A program made the position numbers and the translations under genes. Shown here one piece after another: positions 5,287 through 24,000 of a DNA stretch of 24,000 nt. The DNA is from an uncultured cyanobacterium (GTDB taxonomy: Bacteria; Cyanobacteriota; Cyanobacteriia; Phormidesmidales; Phormidesmidaceae): positions 123,742-147,741 of the forward strand of contig CAWISM010000021.1 in assembly GCA_963838725.1 (NCBI GenBank), read 5' to 3'. Position 1 is the stretch's first letter. The number at the start of each line of letters is the position of its first letter. Under the pieces are notes generated by a model that made no database searches, was not told where the DNA came from, and saw nothing but the letters and a program-made list of their open reading frames with translations.

Positions 5287-5318
5287 AGAAACTATTCAAC
5301 CAAAACTACTTAACCGAA

Positions 5319-6353: not shown

Positions 6354-6433
6354 TTATCAGGAAATGGGTCTCAAGAACCCGGTACCAAGGAAACTGACCA
6401 AAGCGAACACATCCTACTATAGTTTTGGTCACC

Positions 6434-6477: not shown

Positions 6478-6545
6478 GGCATTGCCAACTTTAACAACTT
6501 TTCTGTACTGGCTGCGCACTCACAGACCTTTTGTTACTAGGTAAC

Positions 6546-7241: not shown

Positions 7242-7244
7242 ATT

Positions 7245-8117: not shown

Positions 8118-8289
8118 AGTGAACGAGAAGAGGGTACGAACTGCATCTTATACCGCTTCCTATCATCTAACTCTGTTTGACCATAACTCTGTTTGGCCAT
8201 ATAGACAGCTTCTATCGCTGCTATCGATCGCCACTGGAGCAAGGCGGGCAAGCTGAAGATGTCGCTTTTGACACCGCTCTTTGTTTTCT

Positions 8290-8514
8290 ATGGCTTCTTC
8301 TATGGCTTCTCAGACTTTCGATACCGGTCTACCTAGCATCCGCAAAGTTCAAACTCTGATTCGCAACAAGCAGACTGTTGAAGTCAAGCTGATGACTGGC
8401 GATATACTCTCTGGGGCGGTGAGCTGGCAAGATGCCAATGCAATTTGTGTAAAGGGAAGTGATGGCAACGACACGGTTTTGATGCGCGGCGCGATCGCCT
8501 ACGTCAAAGGGTAG
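8290..8514 (+). CDS. hfq: Cyanobacterial Hfq-like Sm protein
   Basis: FDTGLPSIRKVQTLIRNKQTVEVKLMTGDILSGAVSWQD...AIAYV matches the cyanobacterial Hfq pattern (FDTSLPSIRQLQNLIK..VEIKLVTGD...WQD...AIAY). Start is ambiguous: TTG 8281, ATG 8290 or ATG 8302. Confidence 0.8.
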   Translation: MASSMASQTFDTGLPSIRKVQTLIRNKQTVEVKLMTGDILSGAVSWQDANAICVKGSDGNDTVLMRGAIAYVKG

Positions 8515-8965
8515 ATCCAACCAGCAGCGTACTGATTCATTGGATACATTTTATTCGTACAGCCAACCGATACGATAGGCTCGGCTATATGGATGCACTA
8601 TTGAAAAAGACGAGGCTAGCGCCAGAGAGGTCCTAAGAGAGAGCGAGATCCGTGCTTTTGTTAGTAATATCAGCTAAAGAGCACGAGGTCAAAACCTGCA
8701 TTAGCTTGATCAATCAGCAGTCTCACGCCAGCATGTTCGAGAAGCTAGGCGTGCAGGCGATCAGCGACCTGGCTAGGATTGCGGCTCGATAGTTCTATCA
8801 ATATATTGACATATTGACTTAGAAAAGAAATGAGAATTAAGCTGACGGCAATCAGTTGCGATATCAGCAGATTTTTGCTGATTTCGATTGGAATGCCGCT
8901 GACTATAGCTTTGGTCACTTGACTGAGGTACAGCTTGCAGGCTAAAAGCACTGTGTTTCAACGGG

Positions 8966-9030
8966 TCAAGTGACGCGCCTGTACCGTAGGCCCCGCCTTC
9001 TCGAAGAGTATGCATCCGGTACAGGCTATA
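8966..9030 (-). repeat. Hairpin-forming intergenic repeat, copy 2
   Basis: tcaagtgacgcgcctgtaccg-(29 nt)-ccggtacaggctata. Arms gcctgtaccg / cggtacaggc. Lies just downstream of the DUF421 gene stop on the minus strand. Confidence 0.7.
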
Positions 9031-9068
9031 TTCCTTTTAGCTATGTTCTCCAGCCGTCGCTCTTGATT

Positions 9069-9644
9069 CTAGGCATCTTCTGGAGAGCTAGAACGCAATT
9101 TAATATTGATACTGCCGTTGGGTTCTAGGGTGGCGGTTTCTATCTGTTCTTCTATTTTCTGCCAGGAGATGGCCGTTTTGAGTGGATTGCTTGCTGAGTC
9201 TAGATCGGTGAAAGTACCTTGCGATCGCATCACAACTTCTAGATCTTGCGAGGTAAGATGAGTTTCTCTTAACACTTGTTTGTCTACCTTGCCGTTTTTA
9301 ATTAGCAGCTTGGGTCCACCTTTGATCCAGGATTCTAACCAGGCAAACCGGAACGCAGCAGACGAGAGTAGCCGATGCATTAGTACTAGGGCAAACGCAG
9401 AAAGCAAAGTAGGGAAAAACGGCGACGACCCACTGATAGCTCGGCTCAATGTTGCCCCTAGCATGATGCCTATAATCACATCAAAAGTGGCATACTTACC
9501 GGCAAAGCGGCGATCGCCTAGTGCTCTGACCATTATCAGCGCACTGATATAGACAAACACCGCTCTAGCGCACATCTGCCCCACCGAAATGTTATCCGCG
9601 CTCAGCCCTAAAAGCCCGTCAAGCAGCCGACCAAAGAGATCCAT
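9069..9644 (-). CDS. DUF421 (YetF-like) membrane protein
   Basis: N-terminal TM region RAVFVYISALIMVRALGDRRFAGKYATFDVIIGIMLGATLSRAI and a C-terminal soluble part. Pattern typical of DUF421. Confidence 0.55.
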   Translation of the reverse strand: MDLFGRLLDGLLGLSADNISVGQMCARAVFVYISALIMVRALGDRRFAGKYATFDVIIGIMLGATLSRAISGSSPFFPTLLSAFALVLMHRLLSSAAFRFAWLESWIKGGPKLLIKNGKVDKQVLRETHLTSQDLEVVMRSQGTFTDLDSASNPLKTAISWQKIEEQIETATLEPNGSINIKLRSSSPEDA

Positions 9645-9749
9645 TCACCAACCTTTCCAAGGACATTACCCCGATCAAGATACTACACATGGTTTATGGT
9701 GACTGCTCGGCAGTAGTGACATAGCGAGTCTAGCCGAACGAACTCTCGA

Positions 9750-9779
9750 CTTAATTCATTTTTCGCCTTAATTCATTTT
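9750..9779. repeat. 13-bp direct repeat x2 (cttaattcatttt, 17-bp period) at the 3' edge of the psbV paralog operon
   Basis: Identical copies at 9750-9762 and 9767-9779, 7 nt beyond the psbV paralog stop. Confidence 0.9.
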
Positions 9780-9785
9780 GAGGAT

Positions 9786-10310
9786 CTATCTTTTAGGCTT
9801 GCCGCCTGCCCACTGGTCGCCGACGATATTGGGTTGGGCCAAGATATAGCCTGCGATCGCATCTAAATCATCATCAGTCAAATCCCGCATTCGAGGAAAC
9901 AAATCCGATCTGAGGGTTGAGGGATGCAGTTCCTCGAGCGATCGCAATCCGTCGTAGGTAGTTGGATTGTTCAAGTAATCTACGATTCCTATAACGCTAT
10001 CGCGCGCAGGCGTCGCATTTGCTAAAGTCTCTAGCCCTAGATCGACGTCTGGATTAGTTTTTGAGGCTCCGTCTATGTGGCACTGAGCGCAGCTACCGTT
10101 GAACTTCCGCTGTCCTTGGAGGAATTGTTGAGTTGTTAGGGTAACTGACTCTCCGACGTCGTTGAGAGCGACGGTGCGGTTGGTAGGATTGATTTCAACG
10201 GCGATCGCATTCTGCATCACAAAAAAGGTGAGCATTGCAACTGTCAAACAGATATAGATCGATAGTGCTTTGGTCAAAATGCTTTTGAGAATGTGAATCA
10301 TGGTACTCAT
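9786..10310 (-). CDS. psbV2: Cytochrome c-550 (PsbV) paralog, PSII extrinsic subunit
   Basis: Signal peptide ending AIA/VE. Haem motif CAQCH. Matches PsbV through ANATPARDSVIGIVDYLNNPTTYDG...ELHPS...LFPRMRDLTDDDLDAIAGYIL...WAGGK. The distal His (ELHPS) is retained. I prefer ATG 10310 (GAGAG upstream, 4 nt after the nblA stop) to the track start at 10373. The paralog number is nomenclature by context. Confidence 0.85.
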   Translation of the reverse strand: MSTMIHILKSILTKALSIYICLTVAMLTFFVMQNAIAVEINPTNRTVALNDVGESVTLTTQQFLQGQRKFNGSCAQCHIDGASKTNPDVDLGLETLANATPARDSVIGIVDYLNNPTTYDGLRSLEELHPSTLRSDLFPRMRDLTDDDLDAIAGYILAQPNIVGDQWAGGKPKR

Positions 10311-10314
10311 CTCT

Positions 10315-10539
10315 CTATTGAGAAGGTTTTGATTGAAACAGAATAGATTGAGAGTATTGATCTTGAGGAACATTCGTGGCGCTCAGCAAGTGATTGATCA
10401 AATTGTCTCGAACGATAATCTGTCGCATCAGTTCAACACTGTATGATCGAGCCTGCTCTAGCGATAAGTTCTGAGCCTTGTCCTTTACTTTTTGCAGCGC
10501 TTGCTCTTGTTCTAGATTGAGTTGACCGAGGATATTCAT
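10315..10539 (-). CDS. nblA: NblA-like phycobilisome degradation adaptor (74 aa)
   Basis: LNLEQEQALQKVKDKAQNLSLEQARSYSVELMRQIIVRDNLINHLL follows the NblA pattern (LSLEQEF.L......V..LS.EQA...L.E..RQMMVKDN.I..LLK). Flanked by psbF and psbV paralogs at 23-nt and 4-nt spacing. Confidence 0.75.
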   Translation of the reverse strand: MNILGQLNLEQEQALQKVKDKAQNLSLEQARSYSVELMRQIIVRDNLINHLLSATNVPQDQYSQSILFQSKPSQ

Positions 10540-10562
10540 GTGATTTCTCTCTTAATAAGCAG

Positions 10563-10697
10563 CTACCTTTGAATGAATTGCATAGCCGCAATCGATCCTA
10601 AGAAAAACACGGTTGGAATGGCTAGCGCATGAACGGCTAGCCACCGGATAGTGAAGATCGGATAGGAAACAGGCTGTTCGCGCTCGATATTTATCAT
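10563..10697 (-). CDS. psbF2: Cytochrome b559 beta subunit (PsbF) paralog, 44 aa, missing from the ORF track (<60 aa)
   Basis: My translation of the minus strand is [44 protein letters not shown]. It is near-identical to the PsbF consensus (..[36 protein letters not shown]), including the haem-ligand His. GGAGA lies 9 nt upstream of the ATG (10707-10711, minus strand). Confidence 0.9.
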
Positions 10698-10745
10698 GAT
10701 TCGATTTCTCCAAACTAGGATGCGCTAGACTAAGGTGTGTTGGAT

Positions 10746-11582
10746 TTATGCGATCTCTGGCGTGATTCGGCTGTAGAACTGACCGAGTATTTTGACAGTC
10801 ATTGCTGGTTTAGAGCCAAAGTCTGTATCCGACGGCTGCTGACTTTCAAACGAACCCGAGATTTCGCCTGTCGACTGGTTGACCCGGTCAACTTGCAAAA
10901 CAATGTTTCCGGTTCCCACCTTGAAAGACTTGTTGTTTTGACGAGAAAAAGCCTCTCTATCGGCCTGAATCGGGATGCCAACTGCCGCATCGTAGCCAAC
11001 TGCTAGCCCTCGACCTTTGGGATCGATAAAGCTAGAGGTGCGATAGGGCGGCACATCAAAACTGCCAGCAAATCGAGTAGAGGGGCTAATAGTATCTATC
11101 GCTGCTGCTGTTTTGGCTACGAGCCCTTTGATAGTGAACAGCAAGGGGACGCGATCGCCACTAGGAATTTGAACAGTGACAGGCTGAAAGTCAAATCCCC
11201 CTTGTTCAACAAACGTTATGGCTCCATTCGGCGATTTCTGTAATTCTCCACTCACCTGGTCGAGCGTAAAACTAGAACGAGTCAGCAATTTGCCTTCCAC
11301 GAATCTGCCTGACTGCTTCTTTAGCTGACCGTTTATAGAGGGGAACGTCTCGACTAGAAACGTTTTGGGCTGTAGGCACAGCGATCTAATTTGATAGGGC
11401 TGACTGCCTTCTAAGGGAATAGCGTCCATATTAGTCCCCGTCAGCGCTGGACAATCGTTGGCTAGCCCACTGCCTCTAATGTCATCGTAGGTAAGCTCCC
11501 CTGCTACTTTGGGACTGCTACAGGCAGTGAGCAGTCCTAAAGTCAGTGCTAGAACCGTTGCGATCAAAGTCTTATGTATCAT
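10746..11582 (-). CDS. psbO2: Manganese-stabilising protein (PsbO) paralog with lipoprotein-type signal peptide
   Basis: LTYDDIRGSGLANDCPAL, CLQPKTF, GFDFQPVTVQIPSGDRVPLLFTIKGLVA, FDVPPYRTSSFIDPKGRG, STGEISGSFESQQPSDTDFG all follow PsbO. N-terminus is MIHKTLIATVLALTLGLLTAC. Confidence 0.9.
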   Translation of the reverse strand: MIHKTLIATVLALTLGLLTACSSPKVAGELTYDDIRGSGLANDCPALTGTNMDAIPLEGSQPYQIRSLCLQPKTFLVETFPSINGQLKKQSGRFVEGKLLTRSSFTLDQVSGELQKSPNGAITFVEQGGFDFQPVTVQIPSGDRVPLLFTIKGLVAKTAAAIDTISPSTRFAGSFDVPPYRTSSFIDPKGRGLAVGYDAAVGIPIQADREAFSRQNNKSFKVGTGNIVLQVDRVNQSTGEISGSFESQQPSDTDFGSKPAMTVKILGQFYSRITPEIA

Positions 11583-11670
11583 TCTTAACTCAGATAAAGA
11601 ACTTATCTATTTCTTGTGCGGCCCTGTTTCCAAGGCAGCTTCTTCTGGGCATTGAGTGAAATTTTCTAAC

Positions 11671-11698
11671 AGGTTGTTTCAGACAGGTTGTTTCAGAA
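11671..11698. repeat. Perfect 14-bp tandem direct repeat x2 (caggttgtttcaga) in the divergent psbO2/apcD5 intergenic region; candidate regulator binding site
   Basis: Copies at 11671-11684 and 11685-11698, 89-116 nt upstream of the psbO2 ATG. The core GGTTGTTT recurs upstream of the psbA paralog (22754-22761). Confidence 0.6.
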
Positions 11699-11773
11699 AG
11701 TGCCAATCGAAAATTCCACCGGAAGTGCCATTAAGCATTCATTCTGCTGTGTAGGTTATCGAAGACTTCTGAA

Positions 11774-11894
11774 GAACTTATGAAAATACGGATAAAGCCA
11801 CAGACTCGAATTATGAAGTCATCAATTCAAAGCCAAAGTTTTGAAAAGAAAGCAAATATTGTGGGTTTGAAGTCACCTAGATTTTCATAAGTTC
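11774..11894. repeat. Perfect 14-bp inverted repeat (gaacttatgaaaat / attttcataagttc) separated by 93 nt, upstream of the apc array
   Basis: Arms at 11774-11787 and 11881-11894. A partial third copy (agaacttat) lies near 11598. Confidence 0.8.
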
Positions 11895-12009
11895 TCCATC
11901 TTTGTTCTTTATAGTGACCTTAACTTCCTCACAATTGAAGTACCCTCTGTTGAAGAAACAGTTGAAGAAGTTTTGTTTTATTCCCTTTGAGTAGTGAGAA
12001 TCAAGTACT

Positions 12010-12486
12010 ATGAGCCTAGTCACAGAACTAATTTTGAGCGCAGACAGCGAAGCTCGATATCCTGCGCCCAAAGAGCTGAGAATCTTTCAAGACTTTGTAA
12101 AAACTGGAGAGCAGCGGGTTCGAATCGCCAAAGCTTTAGCAGCTAACGAGCAGAGAATTGTTCAAAACGGCAGTCAGAAGTTTTGGGAGCGCTGTCCGAA
12201 TACACCTAGCAACAGCGGCGTCGATCGGAAAACCGCATCCTGCCAGCGCGATCAGGGCTGGTACATTCGCTTAATTGCCTACTCTATATTAGCTGGCAGC
12301 GAGCGTCCGCTAGAAGATATCGGTACAGTCGGCATCAAGGAAATGTACAACAACCTGGAAATCCCGATCAGAAATATTGCAGAGTGCATGCGCTGTCTAA
12401 AAGAAGAGGCGATGGCCGTTTTGAGTGATGAAGATGCTCAAGAAGTCGCCGCCTATTTCGATCTAATTATTCAGTCTTTGTCGTAG
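12010..12486 (+). CDS. apcD5: Allophycocyanin alpha-type subunit, far-red paralog (ApcD5, formerly ApcA2, by position next to apcB2)
   Basis: MSLVTELILSADSEARYPAPKEL..., CQRDQGWYIRLIAYSILAG and YFDLIIQSLS follow ApcA/ApcD. Carries PNTPSNSG in place of the canonical VVSPGGNAYG. The bilin Cys (residue 78) is present. The paralog number comes from remembered synteny only. Confidence 0.85.
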   Translation: MSLVTELILSADSEARYPAPKELRIFQDFVKTGEQRVRIAKALAANEQRIVQNGSQKFWERCPNTPSNSGVDRKTASCQRDQGWYIRLIAYSILAGSERPLEDIGTVGIKEMYNNLEIPIRNIAECMRCLKEEAMAVLSDEDAQEVAAYFDLIIQSLS

Positions 12487-12547
12487 CGCTTGAGTGATAT
12501 TCACACACTATTTGTTTAAAACACTATTCGTTTAGGAGATTTTTCCT

Positions 12548-13033
12548 GTGCAAGATGCTATCACCACTTTGATCAACACGTCCGATGCTCAAGGCAAATA
12601 TCTAGATGATTCATCGCTAGACACACTGCAAGAATACTTTCGCAGCGGCGATCTGCGAGCGAGAGCGGCAATGACCATTAGCGCTAACGCCTCTACTATT
12701 GTCACCAAGACAGTAGCAAAGTCTCTGCTATATACCGATATTACTGGCCCTGGCGGCAATATGTACACCTGTCGCCGCTACGCCGCTTGCATTCGCGATA
12801 TGGACTTTTTCTTGCGCTATGGTACCTATGCCATGCTAGCAGGCGATGCTTCAATTCTAGATGAACGGGTTCTAAACGGATTGAAAGAAACCTACAACTC
12901 TTTGGGTGTGCCTATCGGCGCGACTATCAGGGCGGTTCAGGCGATGAAAGAAGTGGTCAACGACATGCTAGGCGCTGAAGCTGGCAAAGAGGTCGGTCAC
13001 TACTTTGATCATATCTGTTCTGGTTTGAGCTAG
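12548..13033 (+). CDS. apcB2: Allophycocyanin beta subunit, far-red paralog
   Basis: GTG start gives [20 protein letters not shown] (canonical ApcB N-terminus). [25 protein letters not shown] and [15 protein letters not shown] lies 10 nt upstream. Confidence 0.9.
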
Positions 13034-13046
13034 TCGTTGTTTCTCC

Positions 13047-13098
13047 CAGCGCTCTATTAGCTAGTGGTAGTCGATAGCGGCGGCTAGTAGAGGCGCTG
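13047..13098 (+). terminator. Strong intercistronic stem-loop after apcB2 (partial terminator or RNA-stabilising hairpin)
   Basis: ccagcgctctattagc (13047-13061) pairs with gctagtagaggcgctg (13083-13098): 15 bp including one T-G wobble pair, with one bulged G and a 21-nt loop. It begins 14 nt after the apcB2 stop and is followed by tcttatc (weak U tract). Confidence 0.45.
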
Positions 13099-13129
13099 TC
13101 TTATCAGAGCCGTTATAGGAGATTTTGTG

Positions 13130-13609
13130 ATGAGTGTGATTTCTCAGGCGATCGCAACTGCCGATCGTGAAGTTCGCTATCTCTCTAAAGGAGAGCTAGA
13201 TGCGATCAACCGTTTTTTCAACAATGGCCCCCAGCGATTGAGAATTGTTTCTATTCTCAACAGCAACGCAGAAGAAATTGTTGAAAAAGGCGCTAGGCGA
13301 TTTTGGCAGCGACATCCAATTACCCCTAGCAACAGCGACAATCCGCAATTTCAAGCATCTTGCTTGCGAGATCAGGCTTGGTTTATCCGACTGATCTCGT
13401 ATGCGGTGGCGGTCGGCGATGTCGACCCGCTAGAGGCCAGCGGCGTGAGAGGCGCTAGGGAAATGTATCTTTCTTTGGAGGTGCCGCTGAGGTCGGTGGC
13501 GCTGTGTATGCGATCGCTCAAAGAAGTCACGCTAGAGATGCTGAGCGTAGAAGATGCCGCTGAAGTGGGGCCGTACTTTGACTATCTGATTGCGGGGCTA
13601 ATGCCCTGA
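13130..13609 (+). CDS. apcD2: Allophycocyanin alpha-type subunit, far-red paralog (ApcD2 by position)
   Basis: MSVISQAIATADREVRYLSKGELD, PITPSNSD, ASCLRDQAWFIRLISYAVAVGD, YFDYLIAGL. ATG 13130 is preferred to GTG 13127 because the conserved N-terminus is MS[IV][VI]. Confidence 0.85.
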   Translation: MSVISQAIATADREVRYLSKGELDAINRFFNNGPQRLRIVSILNSNAEEIVEKGARRFWQRHPITPSNSDNPQFQASCLRDQAWFIRLISYAVAVGDVDPLEASGVRGAREMYLSLEVPLRSVALCMRSLKEVTLEMLSVEDAAEVGPYFDYLIAGLMP

Positions 13610-13655
13610 GCCTTGAATTTACTTGAATTTGGTTTACTTCGACTTGGAGACCGCT

Positions 13656-16016
13656 ATGACCGATCGAACCAATGGAGGGAGCCCGGTTGTGCATCCGCAG
13701 CAGTACCACACGGTGCCGACGGCTGTGATCAATGGCGCACATCAGCGCGATCGCTATCTTAGCCATAGCGAAACGCAGACGCTCTCGACTTTTTTAAAAA
13801 CAGGTTTGCAGCGCCTAGAAATTGCTCAAACGCTAGCCCAGCACGCTAATGAGATTGTGGCGGCTGGCGGCAAACGTATCTTTGTCGGCGGCAATCCGAT
13901 GGCTTATTTCGAGCCGCCAGAGGAGCAGGTCGGCATGCCAGGATCTGGATACTTTGTGGCAGAAGACTATCTCTCCCCGAAATCTAGAACTCACCAGCAG
14001 GGCAATGGACATAGTGTCCAAAGTTCGATACCTTCTATCGCCAACCCAGTTGCCTGGTTCAAGGGATTGTTCTTTAGCGGCAAGCCCAGCGTGCCTAACA
14101 GCTTTCAGACGATCAACATTAGGGACTATGGCAAAGTGCGGATGAAGCGCTCCATGCGCGATCTAGGCTGGTTTTTGCGATATATCACCTATGCGATTGT
14201 GGCCGGTGATACGAGTATTATCGCCGTCAATACGCGAGGACTGCGAGGCGTCATTCCTGAAGATGTAACCGTAGCAACGACAGTGGCGCTGCGAGAAATG
14301 CAGTGGAAATCACTCTCTTATTTTCCAACAGAGTCAGCCGCTGCGGCGCTAGTTCGGCGATATTTTGATGTGTTGATTGCCGACTATCAGGTAGAAAAAC
14401 CCTCCGATCGATACCGCACGGGCGTCTCAAAACACGACCAGGGCCTCAGCCTGCCAGAAAGCTATGAAGATAGTGGCAGCGCCATCCCTAGATGGGTGGT
14501 GAAGCCTACTCTGCCCGATAGCGAAAAAGAGGCGGTGATTAGAGCCGCCTATCGACAAGTTTTTGAGCAAGATATTAGCGCTCTGAATGTAGCCGAACTG
14601 GTTCAGCCTATCTCTGAGCTAAAAGGCGAGCACGGGTCGATGGAACTGTTCATTCGGCAGCTGGGCAAATCGCGCCTCTATCGGCAGTTATTTTACGAGC
14701 CCTATACAATTAGCCGAGCAATTGAGCTGGCCTGTCGTCACTTCCTCGGACGAGGGCTGAGCTGTATGGAAGAGTTTCAGCGATACTTTGAGCTAGTTGC
14801 CGATCAAGGATTCTCGGCTTTGATAGATGCATTAGTTAGCTCACAAGAGTACGCTGACTATTTTGGTGTCGAAACGGTACCGTACATACGTAGTCTAGGC
14901 GTAGAAGCTCAAGCCTGCCGTAACTGGGGGCCACAGCTAGATCTATTTAGACACAGCGCGCCGGTTCGCAAAATGCCGCAGTTTGTCACCGCCTTTGCTA
15001 GCTACCGTCAACCTTTGCCGAATCAACACCCTTACGGCATAGGCAACGATCCGCTAGAAACGCAGTTTGGCGCTATCTTTCCGCATGAGACCACCAATCC
15101 TGCGGCTCAGCCCGTTCACTTTGGCGAAGACAGTCGCCGGATTTTGGTCGGTCACGCCCACAGAAAAAGTCACGCTGAAATCTCTCAGCAGATTTTCTCT
15201 TTGAAGACACCGCCGCACGGCACGCCCAAGCAAACAAACCAGCCGCCGAGTTCTGTTCCCAGCTTTGACAGCGCTCAGCATTCTGTTGAATCAGTTATTC
15301 TGGCCGCCTATCGACAGGTGTTTGGCTGTGAGGTACTAGACAGTCAACATCATAGAGTGGCGGAAACTCAGCTCAAAGGCGGGCTGATTACCGTGCGAGA
15401 GTTTGTTCGACAGTTAGCGAAGTCTCGGGCCTTCAGACGGGCTTATTGGGAAAATCTCTATATGACAAAGGCCGCTGAAATTATCCATCGGCGACTGCTA
15501 GGACGACCCACTTACGGACGCAGAGAAACCAGCAAATACTATGATATTTGTGGTCGAAAAGGGTTCTATGCGCTAGTTGATGCGCTAATTGATAGCGATG
15601 ACTATCGTACAGCGTTTGGAGAGAATACGGTTCCCTATGAGCGCTACGTGACGCCGCGTGGATTGGCATTGCGATCGCCCAAAGGCCCGGTTGCGATATC
15701 GAAACTCAGAGATAACCCGCATACGGTTGGCGCGTACATGATGCGCTATCAGCCGCCAGAAACGACTATGCAGCCGCGATCGCACCTAGCGAATGCACAA
15801 GCAAATGGGCACTCGACGCCGACTAGTCGCGATGCCAACAATTCTCTTGAAAATCGCCAAGCCTTACCAACAGAGTCCGCGATGGCTGAAAAATCTGTTG
15901 CTTCGCGAGACTCTACTGCTTTACCAAATTCTACTGTTTCTGAAAACCCTGCGGCTTTAGAAGGCGAAGATCTGGCGATGGCCGGGGCCCGACAAGACGC
16001 TAACTCCTCAGATTAG
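13656..16016 (+). CDS. apcE2: Phycobilisome core-membrane linker ApcE, far-red paralog (two REP/linker domains, Cys-free phycobiliprotein domain)
   Basis: From ATG 13656 (GGAGA upstream): MTDRTNGGSPVVHPQQYHTVPTAVI matches the ApcE N-terminus (..ASGGS...RPQLYQTVP). PB-domain motif MRDLGWFLRYITYAIVAGD. Two Pfam00427-like REP domains, each opening with AAYRQVF (about 14.5-14.9 kb and 15.3-15.65 kb). Confidence 0.9.
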   Translation: MTDRTNGGSPVVHPQQYHTVPTAVINGAHQRDRYLSHSETQTLSTFLKTGLQRLEIAQTLAQHANEIVAAGGKRIFVGGNPMAYFEPPEEQVGMPGSGYFVAEDYLSPKSRTHQQGNGHSVQSSIPSIANPVAWFKGLFFSGKPSVPNSFQTINIRDYGKVRMKRSMRDLGWFLRYITYAIVAGDTSIIAVNTRGLRGVIPEDVTVATTVALREMQWKSLSYFPTESAAAALVRRYFDVLIADYQVEKPSDRYRTGVSKHDQGLSLPESYEDSGSAIPRWVVKPTLPDSEKEAVIRAAYRQVFEQDISALNVAELVQPISELKGEHGSMELFIRQLGKSRLYRQLFYEPYTISRAIELACRHFLGRGLSCMEEFQRYFELVADQGFSALIDALVSSQEYADYFGVETVPYIRSLGVEAQACRNWGPQLDLFRHSAPVRKMPQFVTAFASYRQPLPNQHPYGIGNDPLETQFGAIFPHETTNPAAQPVHFGEDSRRILVGHAHRKSHAEISQQIFSLKTPPHGTPKQTNQPPSSVPSFDSAQHSVESVILAAYRQVFGCEVLDSQHHRVAETQLKGGLITVREFVRQLAKSRAFRRAYWENLYMTKAAEIIHRRLLGRPTYGRRETSKYYDICGRKGFYALVDALIDSDDYRTAFGENTVPYERYVTPRGLALRSPKGPVAISKLRDNPHTVGAYMMRYQPPETTMQPRSHLANAQANGHSTPTSRDANNSLENRQALPTESAMAEKSVASRDSTALPNSTVSENPAALEGEDLAMAGARQDANSSD

Positions 16017-16203
16017 TCCTATGATTCCAACCCAAAGCAACGCTCCGGCTAGCCGAGCCCAGAATCCGCCGCTCGCTGCTGCGGCTCCTCGTTTGAGCCT
16101 AAGAGAACAACTGCGTACCAACAATCCTTTCAACTACCGACTCTGCATTAGCTGGTTCGGTGGTGTACAAATTCATCCTAAGTTTTAGACCTTTGTTGAC
16201 CTC

Positions 16204-16749
16204 ATGAGCATTGTTAAACAGATTATCTCGAATGCCGATGAAGAGCTACGCTATCCCACCCCCGGAGAGCTAGAGATGATTCGCAGCTTCTGTAAAACCG
16301 GAGCCAGCCAGATCCAGCTAGCCAAAACGTTAGAATCTCACGCTTCTACGATTGTCGAACGGGGCACTCGGAAGTTCTGGCAAATCTGTCCTAGAACGCC
16401 TAGCAACAGCGGCAGTCCTCGTAAAACTGAGGCGGCGCAGCGAGATATGAGCTGGTACATCCGCCTGGTTAGCTACTGTTTGCTAGCCGGAAACGATCAG
16501 CCGCTTAGAGAAATTGGGCTGCTAGGGATGAAGGAGCTATACACCAATATCGGCATTCCTCTAGACAACATTTTGCAGTATTTGCGCTGTCTAAAAGCGG
16601 AGGCGATCGCGCTACTTTCTGAAGCTGAGGCCGAGGCAATCATCCCCTACTTCGATCAAATTATTCAGGAGCTGGTGCGGCCCGGTCCTGCTTACTTTGG
16701 CATCAAGGATCGCAGCGTCAGTCAAAGTGCTAGACAAGCGGCGGCATAG
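16204..16749 (+). CDS. apcD3: Allophycocyanin alpha-type subunit, far-red paralog lacking the canonical bilin-binding Cys and carrying a C-terminal extension (ApcD3 by position)
   Basis: MSIVKQIISNADEELRYPTPGELE, PRTPSNSG, AAQRDMSWYIRLVSYCLLAG (Ala78, GCG at 16435-16437, where the other two alphas have Cys), YFDQIIQEL, then an extra ~20 aa VRPGPAYFGIKDRSVSQSARQAAA. Confidence 0.85.
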   Translation: MSIVKQIISNADEELRYPTPGELEMIRSFCKTGASQIQLAKTLESHASTIVERGTRKFWQICPRTPSNSGSPRKTEAAQRDMSWYIRLVSYCLLAGNDQPLREIGLLGMKELYTNIGIPLDNILQYLRCLKAEAIALLSEAEAEAIIPYFDQIIQELVRPGPAYFGIKDRSVSQSARQAAA

Positions 16750-16809
16750 TACCTAGAAGTTTACAAAATCATCTCAAAAGACCCCACAGTACATGACGAG
16801 GATACAACA

Positions 16810-17868
16810 ATGACAATTACGATGGGCTCGCTTGGCTCAGTCAAAGATAGAGTCAAACAGCTCGATGACTGGCTCAAGCGCGATCGCTTTGTTTTTATTG
16901 GCTGGTCAGGGCTGCTACTCTTTCCCTGTTCCTTTTTAGCGATCGGCGCTTGGTTTACCGGAACAACCTTTGTCACCTCTTGGTACACTCACGGCCTAGT
17001 GTCTTCTTATTTAGAAGGCTGCAATTTTCTCACCGTCGCGGTGTCCACACCAGCCGAGAGTATGGGCCATTCGCTGTTGCTGCTTTGGGGACCAGAGGCA
17101 AACGGAGACTTTGTGCGCTGGTGCCAGATTGGCGGGCTCTGGACATTTACCGCCCTGCATGGCGTGTTTGGACTAATTGGATTTATGCTCAGGCAAATTG
17201 AGATTGCTAGGCTAGTCGGGATTCGGCCTTATAACGCGATCGCCTTTTCCGCTCCAATCGCCGTCTACTGCGCCACGTTTTTGATCTATCCGCTGGGTCA
17301 ATCTAGCTGGTTTTTCGGCCCCGGCTTCGGCGTCTCTGCGATCTTCCGCTTCTTACTGTTCTTCCAAGGATTTCACAACTACACGCTGAATCCTTTTCAC
17401 ATGATGGGCGTGACCGGCGTTCTAGGCGGGGCGCTGCTCTGCGCTATCCACGGCGCGACCGTGCAAAATACGCTATTTAGAGACAACCAAAGTAAAAACA
17501 CTTTCAAAGGCTTTAGCACTACCCAGGGCGAAGAAACCTACTCCATGGTGACGGCCAATCGGTTTTGGTCGCAGATTTTTGGAATTGCCTTTTCCAACAA
17601 ACGCTGGCTGCATTTTTTCATGCTGTTTGTTCCGGTTACTGGCCTGTGGATGAGCGCTATTGGCATGGCCGGGCTCGCCTTTAATCTCAGAGCCTATGAC
17701 TTTGTCAGTCAAGAGATCAGGGCCGCTGAAGATCCTGAATTTGAAACGTTTTACACGAAAAATATTCTGTTGAATGAAGGACTGCGCGCCTGGCTCTCAG
17801 AAATGGATCAGCCTGCGAAAAAGTTTGTTTTCCCCGACGAAGTTCTGCCCCGTGGCTTTTCTGAATAA
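16810..17868 (+). CDS. psbD3: Photosystem II D2 protein, far-red paralog
   Basis: Near full-length match to D2: [97 protein letters not shown]. Confidence 0.93.
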
Positions 17869-17927
17869 ATCTCTGAATAAGAACAAACAATCCTTCGTCC
17901 ATAGTTTTCTCACCAGATCTTACTCAC

Positions 17928-19376
17928 ATGGAAACTCCACTCGAAACGATTCCAGATCTATCACTTTCTCTTCCGGCTGAAGCTAGCTCAATTTTGGCAC
18001 CTGCTGGCCCAGGCTATGACGAGGCCACTAGCGGCTATGCCTGGTGGGCCGGAAATGCTCGCCTGATTACCCCAGAGCTGACTGGGCGCTTTCTGGGTGC
18101 TCACGTCGCCCATGCTGGTCTAGTAGCGCTGTGGGCGGGCGGTATGCTGCTTTTTGAAGTCTCCCACTTTAACCTTTCCAAGCCGATGTACGAGCAGGGC
18201 TGTATCCTCATGCCCCACATTGCCACTTTGGGAATTGGGGTCGGGCAGTCGGGTGAAATTACCAGCATATTCCCCTTTTTCGCCATTGGCGTGGCCCACC
18301 TGATTGGCTCGGCAGTGCTGGGCATCGGTGGCATGTATCACGCGATCAAAGGCCCAGAAAAGCTCTACGGTTTCTTTCAGTTTGACTGGACCGATAAGGC
18401 CAAGGTCGCGCAGATTTTGGGCTTTCATATCGCGATTTTGGGCATCTTTGCCCTGCTCTTTGCGGCCAAAGCGATGTACTGGGGCGGTCTGTACGATCCT
18501 TGGGCACCTGGCGGCGGCGATGTTCGTCTGGTGACTAACCCGACGCTAGACCCGCGTATTATCTTTGGCTATTTGATCAAAAGACCCACGGGGGGAGAAG
18601 GCTGGATTGTTAGCGTCAACAACTTAGAAGACATTATCGGTGGCCATATCTGGATTGGCTGCATTTTAATTGCCGGGGGCATTTGGCATATTCTTGTTCC
18701 GCCTTTGCGCTGGACTTATAATCTCTTTCCTTGGACAGGAGAAACCTATCTCTCGCAGAGTTTGGGGAATGTCGCTGGTCAGGCGTTTATTGCAGCCGCC
18801 TTCATTTGGTTCAACAATACGGCTTATCCCAGTGTGTTCTATGGGCCGACGGTTCCAGAATCTTCGCAGGCGCAGTCTTTTGTGTTTTTGATGAGAGACC
18901 AGGGCATGGGCGCGGATGTCGCCTCGGCGCAAGGGCCAACGGGGCTGGGTAAATATTTGCAGCGATCGCCGACTGGAGAAATCATCTTTGGCGGTGAGAC
19001 CATGCGGTTTTGGGATGCGCGGGCTCCTTGGCTAGAGCCTTTACGCGGCAAGAATGGTTTGGATTTAGACAAGCTTCAGCACGACGTTCAGCCCTGGCAG
19101 CTGAGGCGGGCCGCAGAATATATGACCCACTCACCGATCGGCTCACTGAACTCTGTGGCGGGTCTGGCAACAGAATCCAATGCATTCAACTATGTTTCTC
19201 CTAGAACCTGGCTAGCCTCGGCGCACTTTATCTTTGGCTTCTTCTTTTTAGTTGGTCATCTCTGGCATGCTGGCCGAGCGAGAGCGGCAGCGGCTGGGTT
19301 TGAGACTGGACTAGATCGTGAAAATGAGCCAGTGCTGTCGATGGCACCGATTGATCCGAGCTTGCGTTCTGACTAG
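17928..19376 (+). CDS. psbC2: Photosystem II CP43 protein, far-red paralog
   Basis: [53 protein letters not shown] (Mn-cluster second-sphere E/R retained), [22 protein letters not shown]. An in-frame TGA at 17874-17876 excludes any start upstream of ATG 17928. Confidence 0.93.
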
Positions 19377-19411
19377 ATAAGAATCGATTGTTTATTTCAG
19401 GAGAAAATCCG

Positions 19412-20941
19412 ATGGGACTCCCTTGGTATCGCGTTCACACCTCTGTGCTGAACGATCCGGGTCGATTAATTGCTGTGCATATCATGCACAATGCCCTCTG
19501 CGCTGGGTTTGCCGGTTCGATGCTGCTGTTCGAGCTGGCGCTGTTTGACCCGAGTGACCCAGTCTTAAATCCGATGTGGCGACAGGGCTGTTTTTTGATG
19601 CCGTTCGTCTCTAGACTCGGCGTGGTGAATTCTTGGCAAGGCTGGAGCGTCACGGGTGAGACATTTACGAATCCAGGCTTTTGGACATTTGAGACGGTGG
19701 CGATCGCGCACATCATCTTCTCCGGTCTCTCTTTCCTTGCCGCCTGCTGGCACTGGGTCTACTGGGACGTGGCCACCTTCTTCGATCCCAAAACAGACGA
19801 ACCCGTGATCGATTTGCCCAAAGTCTTCGGCATTCACCTAACCCTAGCCGGAATTCTCTGCTTTGGCTTTGGTGCTTTCCATCTCACCGGTTTATTCGGT
19901 CCTGGCATGTGGGTGTCCGATCCGCTAGGACTCACCGGACATATCCAGGGCGTTGCCCCTGAATGGGGCGCAGCCGGATTCGACCCCCACAATCCGGGGG
20001 GCGTGGTCGCTCATCACATCGCCCTCGGCATCGTTGCCATTATCGGCGGACTGTTTCACATCTCTGTTCGACCCCCTGAATATTTATACAAAGGGCTAAG
20101 AATGGGAAACATCGAAGGCGCACTCGCCAGCGGGCTAGCCGTCTTCTTTTCAGGAGCTTTCATCGCCGCTGGGACAATGTGGTATGGCACGGCTACCACC
20201 CCCATCGAACTCTGGGGGCCGACGCGGTATCAGTGGGATCAGGGCGTTTTTCAACAGGCGATTAGCCGCCAAGTAAAAGCCAGTATCAACAATGGTAAAA
20301 GCCTCTCTGAGGCGTGGTCAGAGATTCCGACCAAACTCGCTTTTTATGACTACATCGGCAACAGTCCGGCCAAAGGCGGACTCTTTCGAGTCGGACGCAT
20401 GGTAGACGGTGACGGCCTACCCACTGGGTGGCTAGGTCATCCGGTCTTTAAAGACGGCGAAGGCAGAGAGCTGACAGTTCGTAGAATGCCAAACTTCTTT
20501 GAAAACTTTCCAGTGGTCCTATTCGACCAAGACGGCATCGTTCGCGCCGATATTCCTTTCCGCCAGGCAGAATCGAAATACGGCGTTGAACAGACAGGCG
20601 TAACCGTCAGCTTTTACGGCGGCGAGCTAGATGGACAAACGTTTAGCGATCCTAAAGACGTTAAAAAATATGCCCGTCGCGCGCAGCTAGGAGAGCCGTT
20701 CGAATTTGATCGCAGCGTCTACGACTCGGACGGTTTATTTAGAACCAGCAATCGAGGTTTCTTTGCCTTCTTCCATGTGATCTTTGGCCTGCTGTGGTTC
20801 TTTGGCCATATCTGGCACGGGCTGAGAGCGCTCTTCCAAGACGTGTTCTCTGGCATTGATCCGAGCCTCAGCACTGAGCAAGTGGAGTGGGGCTACTTCA
20901 AGAAAGTCGGTGATCCAACCTCTCAACAAACACCCGCGTAA
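19412..20941 (+). CDS. psbB2: Photosystem II CP47 protein, far-red paralog
   Basis: From ATG 19412 (AGGAG at 19399-19403): [26 protein letters not shown] is the canonical CP47 N-terminus. [26 protein letters not shown] near the C-terminus. The track start at 19388 (TTG) is rejected. Confidence 0.93.
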
Positions 20942-20988
20942 AAGCCAAATAAAGCGACAAGATGCACTATCATCCTGTCGCTTTCTAA

Positions 20989-21219
20989 ATGCAACCAACT
21001 GTTTCAACAAGGCGATCAATGCAACAAAAATACGTTTCCAACAAAGCTGCGCCTTTGCAGTATCCCCTAAGAAAGCTCAACTCCGAAGCGGGCAAAGTCG
21101 TTCCTGGCTGGGGTACAGCGCCCCTAATGGGGATTATGCTAGTTGCGCTTCTACTCTTTATCCTGACGATTCTTCAGGTGTATAACGGTACCGTTGTTGT
21201 TGAAGGTGTCAATATGTAA
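20989..21219 (+). CDS. psbH2: Photosystem II PsbH paralog
   Basis: [40 protein letters not shown] follows PsbH ([20 protein letters not shown]...). Alternative start at ATG 21019 would give 66 aa. Confidence 0.85.
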
Positions 21220-21289
21220 AAAACCCGTAGAAGAAAAAACCACAAGACAAATAGAAAAGATAAGATCAGATAGTTTTGGCATGTAATTA

Positions 21290-21318
21290 GCCGTACGACA
21301 TAGAAACTGTCGTACGGC
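21290..21318 (+). terminator. Perfect 11-bp stem hairpin downstream of psbH2 (likely end of the apc-psb plus-strand transcript)
   Basis: gccgtacgaca-tagaaac-tgtcgtacggc, then ttccttg (weak U tract). 70 nt after the psbH2 stop. Confidence 0.5.
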
Positions 21319-21359
21319 TTCCTTGTAATACTGAATGATACTGAAGTCTTTAGCTCCAA

Positions 21360-21391
21360 CGCTGTTGTTCACGGCCGCTGTTGTTCACGGC
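21360..21391. repeat. Perfect 16-bp tandem direct repeat x2 (cgctgttgttcacggc) in the convergent psbH2/psbA spacer
   Basis: Copies at 21360-21375 and 21376-21391. Confidence 0.9.
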
Positions 21392-21570
21392 GCCTGTCAC
21401 TTTGCTGTCATACACCACACTAGCTGAAGACTCTATACAATAATAATGAGAAAGCGTAATAGCAAGCAAGTGTGATAGCGAACAAGTGTAACAGAGGGTA
21501 AGGTAACGCGTGGTCTCCGTAGGCGTGATCTGTGTATGCCAGATATCAGGACCGCACAGAGAATTCAGCA

Positions 21571-21599
21571 AGAAAAAGCGCTCTCTCGAAAGAAAGCGC
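21571..21599 (-). terminator. Rho-independent terminator of the psbA paralog
   Basis: Minus strand reads GCGCTTTCT-TTCG-AGAGAGCGC-TTTTTCT: 9-bp stem (one G-U), UUCG tetraloop, U tract. About 60 nt after the psbA paralog stop. Confidence 0.75.
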
Positions 21600-21660
21600 T
21601 ACCTAGATAACAACAAGAAAAGATTAATCGCTACGACATGCTAACGATTGAAGGCAAGCA

Positions 21661-22740
21661 TCAAGCCCCAATCTGAGGAGCCTGCATAGCCACTCGAACA
21701 GCCTCTCCACTGGCCAAATCCAGCGGAAAGTTGTGAGCATTACGCTCATGCATGACTTCAAAGCCCAGGCTGGCACGATTGACGACATCTGCCCAGCTTG
21801 GCAGCACGCGACCTTGCGAATCTAGAACAGAATGATTGAAGTTAAACCCATTCAGGTTAAAGGCCATCGTACTAATCCCCAGCGCTACAAACCAGATACA
21901 AACCACCGGCCACGCTGCTAAGAAGAAGTGAAGCTGACGGGAATTGTTGAAACTAGCATACTGAAAGATCAATCGACCAAAGTAGCCGTGAGCCGCTAGA
22001 ATGTTGTAAGTCTCTTCTTCTTGGCCAAACTTATAGCCTTCGTTTTGAGACTGTGAGTCGCTAGTTTCTCTGACCAAGCTAGAGGTCACTAATGACCCAT
22101 GCATCGCGCAGAACAAGGAGCCGCCCAGCACCCCTGCAACGCCAAGCATGTGGAAGGGATGCATCAGAATATTATGCTCTGCCTGGAAGACAAACATAAA
22201 ATTGAAAGTACCGCTGATGCCCATCGGCAGACCATCAGAGAAGCTGCCCTGGCCGATTGGGTAGATCAAGAAAACAGAGATAGTCGCCGCGACTGGCGCA
22301 GAATAAGCAATGCAAATCCAAGGACGCATGCCCAGTCGATAGCTCAGCTCCCATTCTCGGCCCAGATAACACAGCAGCGCTGGGATGTAGTGGAAGGCGA
22401 TCATCTGATAAGGCCCCCCGTTATAGAGCCATTCGTCTAAGGTGGCGGCTTCCCAGATTGGATAAAAGTGAAGCCCAATGGCATTAGAGGTAGGAACAAC
22501 AGCAGCCGTAATAATGTTGTTTCCATACAGCAGCGAACCAGAAAGTGGTTCGCGGATGCCGTCGATATCAACAGGCGGTGCCGCGATGAAGGCCGTGACA
22601 AACACAGTGATGGAAACGCCAAGAAGCGGCAGCATCAAGACACCGAACCAGCCGATATATAAGCGGTTCTCGGTGCTAGTTATCCATCGACAGAATTGTT
22701 CCCATCGGTTGATAGTCGGACGTTGAATAAGGGTAGTCAT
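21661..22740 (-). CDS. psbA3: Photosystem II D1 protein, far-red paralog (functional D1, not chlorophyll f synthase)
   Basis: [38 protein letters not shown]. Retains the Mn4CaO5 ligand contexts: D170 ([10 protein letters not shown]), E189 ([11 protein letters not shown]), and H332/E333/H337/D342/A344 ([16 protein letters not shown]), followed by a 16-aa CtpA-type extension. Confidence 0.9.
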
Positions 22741-22978
22741 GTTTCTACAATACGGTTGTTTACGTGAAGAACCTTATTGCAGCAAAACAAAGTGGAGATG
22801 TCATGAAGAGATGAAAGTTTTCTATTAGAAAAGCAACAAAGATAGCAAGAAAAGCCAGACAAAGGCTGTGAAGCAATTGATTGAAAGCAAATGACGGTTC
22901 TGCTCGAAGTCGTGCCTACCGCGACGCCTATAATGAATGATGTCGAATGGCTAAGGATATAGACACCGCGCACAACCT

Positions 22979-23914
22979 ATGATGACTTCCTTCATTGATT
23001 ATCTACATGCCAGCTGGCAGATGCTGAGTTCGACTGTTTCTAGACTGACGGCTCGGCAGCGCTGGGTGCTGCCGAGCTTGGTGGGAGCCGTGTTTTGGTG
23101 GAGTGCGATCGCCCATCCAGCCGCAGCCTACCAGGTCCAAGTCTTGCCGACCAATCCAGTTCAAGGCAGCACGCTATCAGTCATCGTACAAGGCGATAGT
23201 AGTAGTTCACAGCTGCCAACCGTTACTGTAGACGGTGCTACCTATACCGCTTTTCCGCTATCCGACAATCGCTATCGTGCGCTCATCCCGACTAGCCCCA
23301 ACACAAAATCCGGTCGGATGACGCTGCGAGTAGAAGGCCCTGCCGGGACTAACAATATTGCTGTGGGGATTGGCGATCGCAGCTTCAACACTCAATATAT
23401 CAACCTCTCTCCCGGCCGCGCTGGCCTAGAAGGCACCGACTACGAGTTTGACAGCCTAGATGCGCTTCGCGCCCTGCGCACACCCACCCGCTACTGGAGT
23501 GGTCCTATGGCTAGACCCAGCAATGGCCGAGTCAGCTCTGCGTACGGCAACCAGCGCTACTACAACGGTGTCTTCGCCGAAGGCTACTACCACCGAGGCG
23601 TGGACTATGCGGCTGGCAACGGTGCTCCGATCTACGCGCCTGCCGCTGGCCAAATTGCCCTAGTTGGCCGCGAGTCAGATGGCTTTGTGCTCAACGGCAA
23701 CACGCTGGGTATCGATCACGGACAGGGCGTTGTTAGTGTGATGATTCATCTCTCTGGGTTTGCGGTAAATGAAGGCGATTTTGTGCAGCAGGGTCAGCTA
23801 GTCGGCTACATGGGCGCAACTGGATTCGCGACTGGGCCAAACCTGCACTGGGGACTATTTGTCAATGAGGTGGCCGTCGATCCAGTTCCTTGGCGATATG
23901 ACGGCATCGAGTAG
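22979..23914 (+). CDS. M23 (LytM) family metallopeptidase with N-terminal signal/anchor
   Basis: HRGVDYAAGNGAPIYAPAAG, GIDHGQGVVSVMIHLS, GATGFATGPNLHWGLF (HxxxD and HxH zinc motifs). N-terminal hydrophobic segment VLPSLVGAVFWWSAIAHPAAA. Confidence 0.85.
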   Translation: MMTSFIDYLHASWQMLSSTVSRLTARQRWVLPSLVGAVFWWSAIAHPAAAYQVQVLPTNPVQGSTLSVIVQGDSSSSQLPTVTVDGATYTAFPLSDNRYRALIPTSPNTKSGRMTLRVEGPAGTNNIAVGIGDRSFNTQYINLSPGRAGLEGTDYEFDSLDALRALRTPTRYWSGPMARPSNGRVSSAYGNQRYYNGVFAEGYYHRGVDYAAGNGAPIYAPAAGQIALVGRESDGFVLNGNTLGIDHGQGVVSVMIHLSGFAVNEGDFVQQGQLVGYMGATGFATGPNLHWGLFVNEVAVDPVPWRYDGIE

Positions 23915-23997: not shown

Positions 23998-24000
23998 ACT

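Follow-up and report, generated by a model that had tools for sequence, protein, structure and literature searches.

Does a tightly packed block of photosystem II (PSII) and allophycocyanin genes in an uncultured cyanobacterium belong to far-red light photoacclimation (FaRLiP), where does the rest of that system lie, and does the block share the history of the genes around it? We addressed these questions for a 24,000 bp stretch of contig CAWISM010000021.1 (assembly GCA_963838725.1, family Phormidesmidaceae), hereafter called the window, in which the block occupies positions 9786-22740. The block is very probably one half of a split FaRLiP system, its PSII/allophycocyanin sub-cluster, and is gene-for-gene orthologous to the sub-cluster of Synechococcus sp. 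PCC 7335.

Far-red identity of the PSII and allophycocyanin genes

Genes were called from a listing of open reading frames (ORFs) and from profile searches (Pfam, NCBIfam, Rfam) of the window. A sequence-only reading had named 14 genes in the block and had given the order alpha-apcB-alpha-apcE-alpha-psbD-psbC-psbB-psbH. All 14 were found where it had placed them and in that order, together with one conserved 55-codon ORF (orf55) that it had overlooked, and all 15 ORFs were intact. From left to right, psbV-nblA-psbF-psbO lie on the minus strand, apcD5-apcB2-apcD2-apcE2-orf55-apcD3-psbD3-psbC2-psbB2-psbH2 on the plus strand, and psbA3 on the minus strand:

9786..10310, minus strand: psbV paralog (cytochrome c-550); Pfam Cytochrom_C550, 1.8e-49; NCBIfam PS_II_C550 equivalog, 200.7 bits, cut-off 177.75
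10315..10539, minus strand: nblA paralog (phycobilisome degradation adaptor); Pfam NblA, 4.8e-12
10563..10697, minus strand: psbF2 (cytochrome b559 beta paralog), a 44-codon ORF; Pfam Cytochrom_B559, 1.9e-18
10746..11582, minus strand: psbO paralog of the far-red cluster; Pfam MSP, 8.8e-92
11583..12009, no strand: divergent psbO-apcD5 control region; conservation, inverted repeat I8 and pattern scans
12010..12486, plus strand: apcD5 (alpha-type phycobiliprotein); 8UHE_A, 341 bits
12548..13033, plus strand: apcB2; Pfam; NCBIfam apcB, 225.9 bits, just below the cut-off of 228.15
13127..13609, plus strand: apcD2 (alpha-type phycobiliprotein); 8UHE_I, 325 bits
13656..16016, plus strand: apcE2 (core-membrane linker, 786 aa; the ORF opens at 13623); 8UHE_K, 1485 bits; two PBS_linker_poly stretches
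16021..16188, plus strand: orf55 (conserved small ORF), conserved between apcE2 and apcD3
16204..16749, plus strand: apcD3 (alpha-type phycobiliprotein with Ala at the Cys81 position); 8UHE_C, 387 bits
16810..17868, plus strand: psbD3 (far-red D2); Pfam Photo_RC
17928..19376, plus strand: psbC2 (far-red CP43); Pfam PSII
19412..20941, plus strand: psbB2 (far-red CP47); Pfam PSII, 3.2e-251
20989..21219, plus strand: psbH2; Pfam PsbH, 2.2e-18
21661..22740, minus strand: psbA3 (far-red D1); NCBIfam psbA, 717 bits; 8EQM_A, 811 bits

The psbV ORF extends to 10373, and its likely start at 10310 gives 174 aa, equal to the PCC 7335 protein. Likewise, the psbB2 ORF opens at a TTG at 19388, and the ATG at 19412 gives 509 aa, matching PCC 7335. 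A 53-codon frame at 10552-10713, given earlier for psbF, proved to be the wrong frame at that locus, and the 44-codon ORF was retained.

The products were searched against chains of solved structures (PDB), and the bit scores were compared with those of canonical subunits. PsbA3 matched the far-red D1 chains 8EQM_A (811 bits) and 7SA3_A (795 bits), followed by 9T5T_A (726 bits) and 9T5U_A (721 bits), whereas every canonical D1 scored at most 679 bits. ApcE2 scored 1485 bits against 8UHE_K (ApcE2) and at most 821 bits against canonical ApcE, and the best matches of the three alpha subunits, in gene order, were ApcD5 (8UHE_A, 341 bits), ApcD2 (8UHE_I, 325 bits), and ApcD3 (8UHE_C, 387 bits) of the same structure. 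The PsbO score was 562 bits against 8EQM_O, compared with 285 bits for the next PsbO, and PsbF2 was closest to 7SA3_F/8EQM_F (81 bits, 39 of 44 residues identical). PsbV scored ~178 bits (177) against 8EQM_V, no better than Thermosynechococcus PsbV, and by this measure it is an isoform other than the one modelled in the far-red PSII structure 8EQM.

The residues that distinguish far-red subunits were also present. In an alignment with 7SA3_A, 8EQM_A, and canonical D1, PsbA3 carried Tyr120 and Thr155 (7SA3 numbering), the far-red D1 residues defined in PMC8689208, in place of the canonical Phe and Ala. It kept all Mn4CaO5 ligands, as FaRLiP PsbA3 does, indicating that this sole D1-family ORF of the window encodes a D1 protein and not ChlF. 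ApcE2 had the FaRLiP character as well: it contained two linker repeat (REP) domains only, read RGVIPEDVT (VIPEDV at residue 199) in place of the canonical REIIENACSG, and had no Cys in its first 260 residues, the phycobiliprotein-like domain in which canonical ApcE carries its bilin Cys at about position 195. The Ser in KRSMRDL was considered as the lost ApcE cysteine and rejected, as this Ser is shared by canonical ApcE; the cysteine site is instead that of ENAC(S)/VIPEDV. ApcD3 had Ala at the Cys81 position (TEAAQRD), whereas ApcD5 and ApcD2 had Cys (ASCQRD and ASCLRD), implying that the ApcD3 bilin would be bound non-covalently. In the 8UHE structure, both ApcD3 and ApcE2 have been described with non-covalent chromophores (PMC10810746).

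The PSII genes psbA3, psbD3, psbC2, psbB2, and psbH2 were thus all far-red paralogs, and the antenna genes apcD5, apcB2, apcD2, apcE2, and apcD3 were all present. The possibility that the block consists of ordinary white-light PSII and allophycocyanin genes in an unusual cluster accommodates the family-level domain matches and nothing else. The large score gaps to canonical subunits, the far-red-specific residues in PsbA3 and ApcE2, and the scores of the three alpha subunits against the ApcA equivalog (133-160 bits, cut-off 270) leave it with a negligible chance. The data support the products of the block as orthologs of the experimentally characterised far-red subunits of PCC 7335, rather than white-light copies. 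Two claims of the sequence-only reading are therefore upheld: that these genes are paralogs and not housekeeping copies (best matches 8EQM, 7SA3, and 8UHE, with wide gaps to canonical subunits), and that their products carry systematic substitutions (those in PsbA3, ApcE2, and ApcD3).

The two far-red D1 chains of PCC 7335, 8EQM_A and 7SA3_A, differ N-terminally (359 aa against 361 aa), which suggests that PCC 7335 may have two far-red-type psbA genes. Of these two, the 8EQM form is the one represented by PsbA3 of the window and by the PsbA3 adjoining the PCC 7335 block. The PCC 7335 psbO (7053-7892 of locus L036) was compared with PMC9843442; the isoforms in the 8EQM model are those encoded directly beside apcD5 in PCC 7335 and in the window.

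Other FaRLiP clusters and the question of a split

The same 15 ORFs were found in identical order and orientation in PCC 7335 (locus L036) and in cf. Phormidesmis LEGE 11477 (locus L027), bearing out the earlier description of the block as a FaRLiP-type half-cluster. Nucleotide identity of the block to both was 86-91%, and homology to the PCC 7335 block covered 9778-22811 (blastn). Amino acid identity to PCC 7335 was 97-99% for ApcD5 (98.7%), ApcB2 (98.1%), ApcD3, PsbD3 (98.3%), PsbC2 (98.3%), PsbB2 (98.5%), and PsbA3. It was 82% for PsbV (against the PCC 7335 cluster copy) and 82-86% for PsbH2 (PCC 7335 and LEGE 11477). ApcE2 was 85% identical to the LEGE 11477 protein, 84% to that of PCC 7335, and 100% to one database protein (P0001).

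The accessory genes agreed too. psbO diverged from the apc genes, psbF lay between psbO and psbV, and psbV stood at the edge, all in the same orientation; psbO2, psbV2, and psbF2 are optional FaRLiP genes of Nodosilineales, with positions given in Table S8 of 10.1101/2024.05.15.594131. The nblA gene occupied the same position in 5 block-bearing genomes, and a psbO1-psbF2-nblA paralog-psbV operon has been reported for PCC 7335 (PMC8689208). The orf55 ORF was found between apcE2 and apcD3 in six block-bearing lineages, with a nearly invariant C-terminus (NPFNYRxCISWFGGVQIHPKF). It had no Pfam match, and its 12 database homologs were each unnamed or "hypothetical" (e.g., S7335_3501 of PCC 7335); their named sources were all close relatives (PCC 7335, LEGE 11477, Romeria LEGE 07310, and Phormidesmis MAGs (metagenome-assembled genomes)). 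The nblA paralog and this uncharacterised 55-residue ORF are thereby conserved members of this cluster type.

PCC 7335 and LEGE 11477 also shared the chromosomal neighbourhood of the window, reading ...DUF1980-permease-SurE-DapF-Hfq-[block]-TrkA-TrkH-DUF421-M23. The psbO-psbF2-nblA-psbV operon, orf55, and the hfq-M23 neighbourhood were thus common to the split PCC 7335 cluster and the window. In contrast, PCC 7335 and LEGE 11477 had the block between trkA and the hfq 3' end, and the window had it between DUF421 and M23; the psbH2-psbA3 spacer of PCC 7335 was unlike that of the window, and the flanking genes of the two were far more diverged than the block. Gene set, order, operon, and split have all been published for PCC 7335, so the system is, as the sequence-only reading held, already described. 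The window adds one more FaRLiP locus and no new mechanism; its source is probably an uncultured relative of PCC 7335 from a marine or coastal setting. The novelty is modest and lies in a site polymorphism, a discordant genealogy, and a small ORF that is conserved and uncharacterised.

The unsplit clusters of Nodosilineales (Halomicronema hongdechloris and the MAGs J06634_5 and J06554_11) shared the psbV-(nblA-psbF)-psbO / apc-psb / psbA3 core and had psbO and psbV copies inside the cluster. They differed in having rfpC and rfpA directly after psbA3, with psa genes and chlF further on, in their unrelated genomic contexts, and in synonymous sites that were saturated relative to the window (synonymous distance, dS, >1.4). 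The apcD4-apcB3-isiX cluster for photoacclimation to low light (LoLiP) likewise codes for red-shifted paralogs of allophycocyanin but contains neither PSII core genes nor ApcE2, and the alpha subunits of the window matched ApcD5/ApcD2/ApcD3 better than the LoLiP-type ApcD4 (8DDY). The canonical 21-gene FaRLiP cluster of Leptolyngbya sp. JSC-1 (Gan et al. 2014), compared here from the literature, has apc genes followed by psbD3-psbC2-psbB2-psbH2, psbA3, and an ApcE2 with two repeats and no bilin cysteine, as in the window. Unlike the block, it is contiguous with rfpABC, psa genes, and chlF and is not known to contain psbO, psbV, psbF, or nblA.

Neither rfpA/B/C, chlF, nor psaA2/B2/L2/I2/F2/J2 was found in the window by ORF listing and profile searches, in agreement with the sequence-only reading, and the window contained no GAF/PHY/HisKA or response-regulator ORF. 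The flanks were those it had described: hfq (8281-8514) and DUF421 (9069-9644) on the left and an M23 peptidase gene (22979-23914) on the right, 86 bp before the window ends. The remaining genes on the left encode a PGA_cap protein, an HTH protein, a Big_5 protein, DUF1980, an ArsP permease, SurE, and DapF.

That reading had left two options for the missing genes: a split cluster, or one continuing past base 24000. We used the M23 peptidase to scan species-representative genomes, which yielded 35 loci from relatives at up to 91% identity. The order PGAcap-HTH-Big5-DUF1980-permease-SurE-DapF-Hfq-(TrkA-TrkH-DUF421)-M23 was conserved in ~30 of these 35 loci, indicating that the right-hand neighbour of the block belongs to the backbone, which supports a split. 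Downstream of M23, three inspected loci showed the same ORF pattern; profile scans of L005, the closest relative, and of the block-bearing LEGE 11477 locus identified ComFB, YkuD, lipoyl synthase, GAPDH, and an MFS transporter there. No Photo_RC-family match or FaRLiP gene occurred within 7.8-10 kb 3' of M23 in LEGE 11477 (7.8 kb), L005, or other loci.

An unsplit cluster, with rfpC-rfpA-rfpB, the psa paralogs, and chlF shortly past base 24000, would fit a window that stops so soon after M23, and rfpC and rfpA do stand directly beside psbA3 in the unsplit relatives J06634_5 (L039) and J06554_11-type (L045). However, no rfpC/rfpA remnants were present beside psbA3 in the window, the conserved hfq...M23-ComFB-YkuD-LipA-GAPDH-MFS backbone runs through the position in question and is free of FaRLiP genes in the relatives scanned, and a split has been documented for the cluster of PCC 7335 (supplement of 10.1101/2024.05.15.594131). 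We therefore consider an unsplit cluster quite improbable. Synteny in relatives argues for a split, the first of the two earlier options, and makes continuation past 24000 unlikely; as in the PCC 7335-type half-cluster, the same genes in the same order are bounded by non-FaRLiP housekeeping genes on both sides. Since rfpC and rfpA adjoin psbA3 in L039 and L045, the break in the group of PCC 7335, LEGE 11477, and the window would lie just beyond the psbA3 promoter.

A split half-cluster could also be an orphan or relic, in a genome that lost chlF, rfp, and psa genes or never had them and has no working far-red response. Partial FaRLiP clusters occur in nature (10.1101/2024.05.15.594131), and the closest relative, L005, has no block at this locus. 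Against this stand the intactness of all 15 ORFs, dN/dS ratios relative to PCC 7335 of ~0.01-0.2 for block genes, the conservation of the upstream control regions, and the complete FaRLiP gene sets listed for the two sequenced strains that share this half-cluster (supplement of 10.1101/2024.05.15.594131). A relic is accordingly improbable, and we keep to the block as one half of a split FaRLiP system.

Upstream motif and predicted far-red response

The 427-bp divergent spacer between psbO and apcD5 showed 83% column identity across the window, PCC 7335, and LEGE 11477, and ~75 bp proximal to the psbA3 start was conserved upstream of that gene. Inverted repeat I8 in the divergent spacer led to the pattern TTCATRASWTCTYCA, which matched the window at three sites:

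11770-11784, minus strand: TTCATRASWTCTYCA copy in the psbO-apcD5 divergent spacer
11884-11898, plus strand: TTCATRASWTCTYCA copy in the psbO-apcD5 divergent spacer
22793-22807, minus strand: third TTCATRASWTCTYCA copy, in the conserved promoter-proximal region of psbA3

One copy lay ahead of each predicted transcription unit, and a pattern scan of 35 loci lacking the block found none (0/35). About 0.02 matches are expected by chance, a comparison that is no independent statistic because these three sites are themselves the source of the pattern; its weight lies in cross-species conservation and specificity. T-rich motifs have been reported upstream of apc, psbO, and psbA3, and the placement of TTCATRASWTCTYCA fits them, a likeness by position, as the published motif is given as a figure only. 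A sigma-70 promoter scan of the window was below chance (9 found, 15.4 expected). The three aligned copies of this putative far-red promoter motif could serve in promoter engineering.

The circular derivation of the motif count weighs against the reading of the block as a FaRLiP half-cluster, as do two further points. chlF, rfpABC, and the six psa paralogs lie outside the 24 kb, so we infer rather than observe the FaRLiP ability of the organism. In addition, the PsbV isoform is not that of the far-red PSII structure, making its place in the far-red complex uncertain.

By analogy with PCC 7335 and other strains with FaRLiP, we propose the following mode of action, in which the regulation, the binding of pigments, and a second half-cluster with chlF, the psa paralogs, and rfpABC are all predicted. 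Under light >700 nm, an RfpA/RfpC/RfpB cascade, encoded elsewhere in the genome, would activate three transcription units, each preceded by a copy of the shared T-rich motif: psbO-psbF2-nblA-psbV (minus strand), apcD5-apcB2-apcD2-apcE2-orf55-apcD3-psbD3-psbC2-psbB2-psbH2 (plus strand), and psbA3 (minus strand). PSII would be rebuilt for far-red light, with Tyr120 and Thr155 of PsbA3 hydrogen-bonding the formyl group of a chlorophyll d at the ChlD1 site and with PsbB2 and PsbC2 binding chlorophyll f. The two-repeat ApcE2 would organise a bicylindrical allophycocyanin core, in which ApcE2 and ApcD3 would hold phycocyanobilin non-covalently, giving absorption >700 nm. The NblA paralog presumably aids removal of white-light phycobilisomes.

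Insertion site and ancestry of the block

The closest relative, L005, was 87.7% identical to the window in nucleotides over 1-8601 and 89.9% over the M23 gene, and it had no block: its M23 gene began 45 bp after DUF421. In a second relative, L033, a continuous 58-bp DUF421-M23 spacer aligned to window positions 9645-9671 and 22948-22978, which delimits the insertion as follows:

9672..22947, no strand: insertion, measured against the empty DUF421-M23 spacer in relatives; L033 spacer alignment

By this alignment, the window carries a clean insertion of 13.3 kb between DUF421 and M23. A two-junction local alignment of the window revealed no target-site duplication, scoring no better than shuffles, and no tRNA genes were found at the block boundaries. 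The left junction also gave an apparent long alignment to the spacer of L033, which was discarded as a spurious extension.

The block site of PCC 7335 and LEGE 11477, between the hfq 3' end and trkA, is 2.6 kb away. The window's own hfq-trkA spacer was of the empty type, and the DUF421-M23 spacer of PCC 7335 was too short for any gene. Phormidesmis CCAP 1446/5 carried the block in a different context (L041), and its hfq-M23 locus (L010) was empty. In PCC 7335 (L036 5897-5917 and 19442-19466), both block junctions showed an imperfect copy of ~22 bp from the 3' end of hfq, with the GCGATCGC (HIP1) palindrome inside it. This repeat, recognised from the separate alignment of each junction to L033, may be a target duplication; direct comparison of the left and right junctions gave 9 identical bases only, no better than shuffles.

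We next compared the divergence of the block with that of its flanks. Relative to PCC 7335, dS was 1.2 to >2.3 for flanking genes and 0.28-0.78 for block genes, with psbV as the exception within the block (1.0). Relative to L005, which lacks the block, flanking genes had dS values of 0.22-0.56 at 94-96% amino acid identity, with DUF421 apart (0.94 and 75.8%). Block genes were saturated (dS >1.4) relative to J06634_5 or CCAP 1446/5, and flanking genes reached at least 1.3 (CCAP 1446/5 only). The saturation relative to distant relatives indicates that block genes are not intrinsically slow at synonymous sites. Nonsynonymous distances (dN) of 0.003-0.03 for the pigment-binding subunits of the block indicate purifying selection on them.

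Third-position distances among the window, PCC 7335, and LEGE 11477 provided a test that is independent of rate differences between gene classes. For the flanks, the distances were 0.88 (window-PCC 7335), 0.78 (window-LEGE 11477), and 0.52 (PCC 7335-LEGE 11477), a ratio of 1.60 (95% bootstrap confidence interval (CI) 1.47-1.76). The corresponding block distances were 0.31, 0.31, and 0.33, with a ratio of 0.96 (95% bootstrap CI 0.90-1.02). Sites at which one of the three genomes was the odd one out told the same story: in the flanks the window was the outlier at 780 sites, compared with 428 and 336 for the others, and in the block the counts were 563, 585, and 594. The block was a mosaic in this respect, the outlier being LEGE 11477 in apcB2 and psbB2, PCC 7335 in apcE2, psbO, and psbH2, and the window in psbV, whose substitution pattern resembled that of the flanks and not that of the block. 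Neighbour-joining trees of the flanks grouped the window with L005 (100% bootstrap). Distances to outgroups were equal, indicating that the data were clock-like. G+C content at third codon positions was indistinguishable between block (0.540) and flanks (0.547), and so speaks neither for nor against import.

These data are read most economically as an exchange of the half-cluster, through recombination, among related lineages that carry the block and had already diverged, with the psbV edge of the window keeping the older history. The comparison involves only seven or eight flanking genes, and we give the exchange even odds. The broader proposal, that the half-cluster is a laterally exchangeable module among marine Nodosilineales, with two clean sites 2.6 kb apart in the hfq-M23 neighbourhood, no copy in the closest relative, and three known copies that are equidistant and mosaic where their host backbones are not, is in our judgement equally balanced between true and false. 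If true, FaRLiP capacity would spread or be repaired by recombination between related lineages, and inheritance would not be strictly vertical. A recent preprint argues for strictly vertical inheritance of FaRLiP; the comparison of filled with empty sites and the discordant genealogies bear on this debate over vertical or lateral transmission of far-red photosynthesis.

The region left of the block has also been rearranged:

8672..8901, plus strand: remnant (230 bp) of the trkA/trkH junction; blastn to L036 19814-20034 (trkA end and trkH start) and to L001

trkA/trkH is intact in relatives and deleted in the window and L005. Both DUF421 and the trkA/trkH remnant had diverged from L005 far more than the other flanking sequence and were closest to L001 (83-87%), and a variable tract wider than the far-red genes may extend from ~8600 to ~23030. 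Between the remnant and DUF421, window positions 8903-9031 gave an inverted match (87-89%) to sequence just 3' of psbH2 in LEGE 11477; this segment also matched intergenic spots in L005 and L024 and resembles a small dispersed repeat. A 17-nt tandem direct repeat (TCGACTTAATTCATTTT / TCGCCTTAATTCATTTT) occupies 9746-9779, at the block's left edge and just past the psbV 3' end.

Within psbC2, a full-length Rfam match to IsrR (RF01419, 103 bits) was obtained at 18387-18573 on the minus strand, antisense to the gene, and the psbC2 genes of PCC 7335 and CCAP 1446/5 gave it at the corresponding position. It was judged an artefact and not evidence of an sRNA, because psbC2 resembles isiA in coding sequence and the antisense strand of isiA underlies the IsrR model.

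The convergent spacer between psbH2 and psbA3 (21220-21660) differed among genomes. It held two small ORFs in LEGE 11477, for which DUF433 and DUF5615 matches were only faint, one 366-aa ORF in J06634_5, and AraC, SDR, and aldo-keto reductase genes in J06554_11-type MAGs. In the window, it contained an exact 16-nt tandem duplication (21360-21391) and the following feature:

21577..21600, minus strand: terminator-like hairpin followed by a T-run, 3' of psbA3; from a consensus scan only

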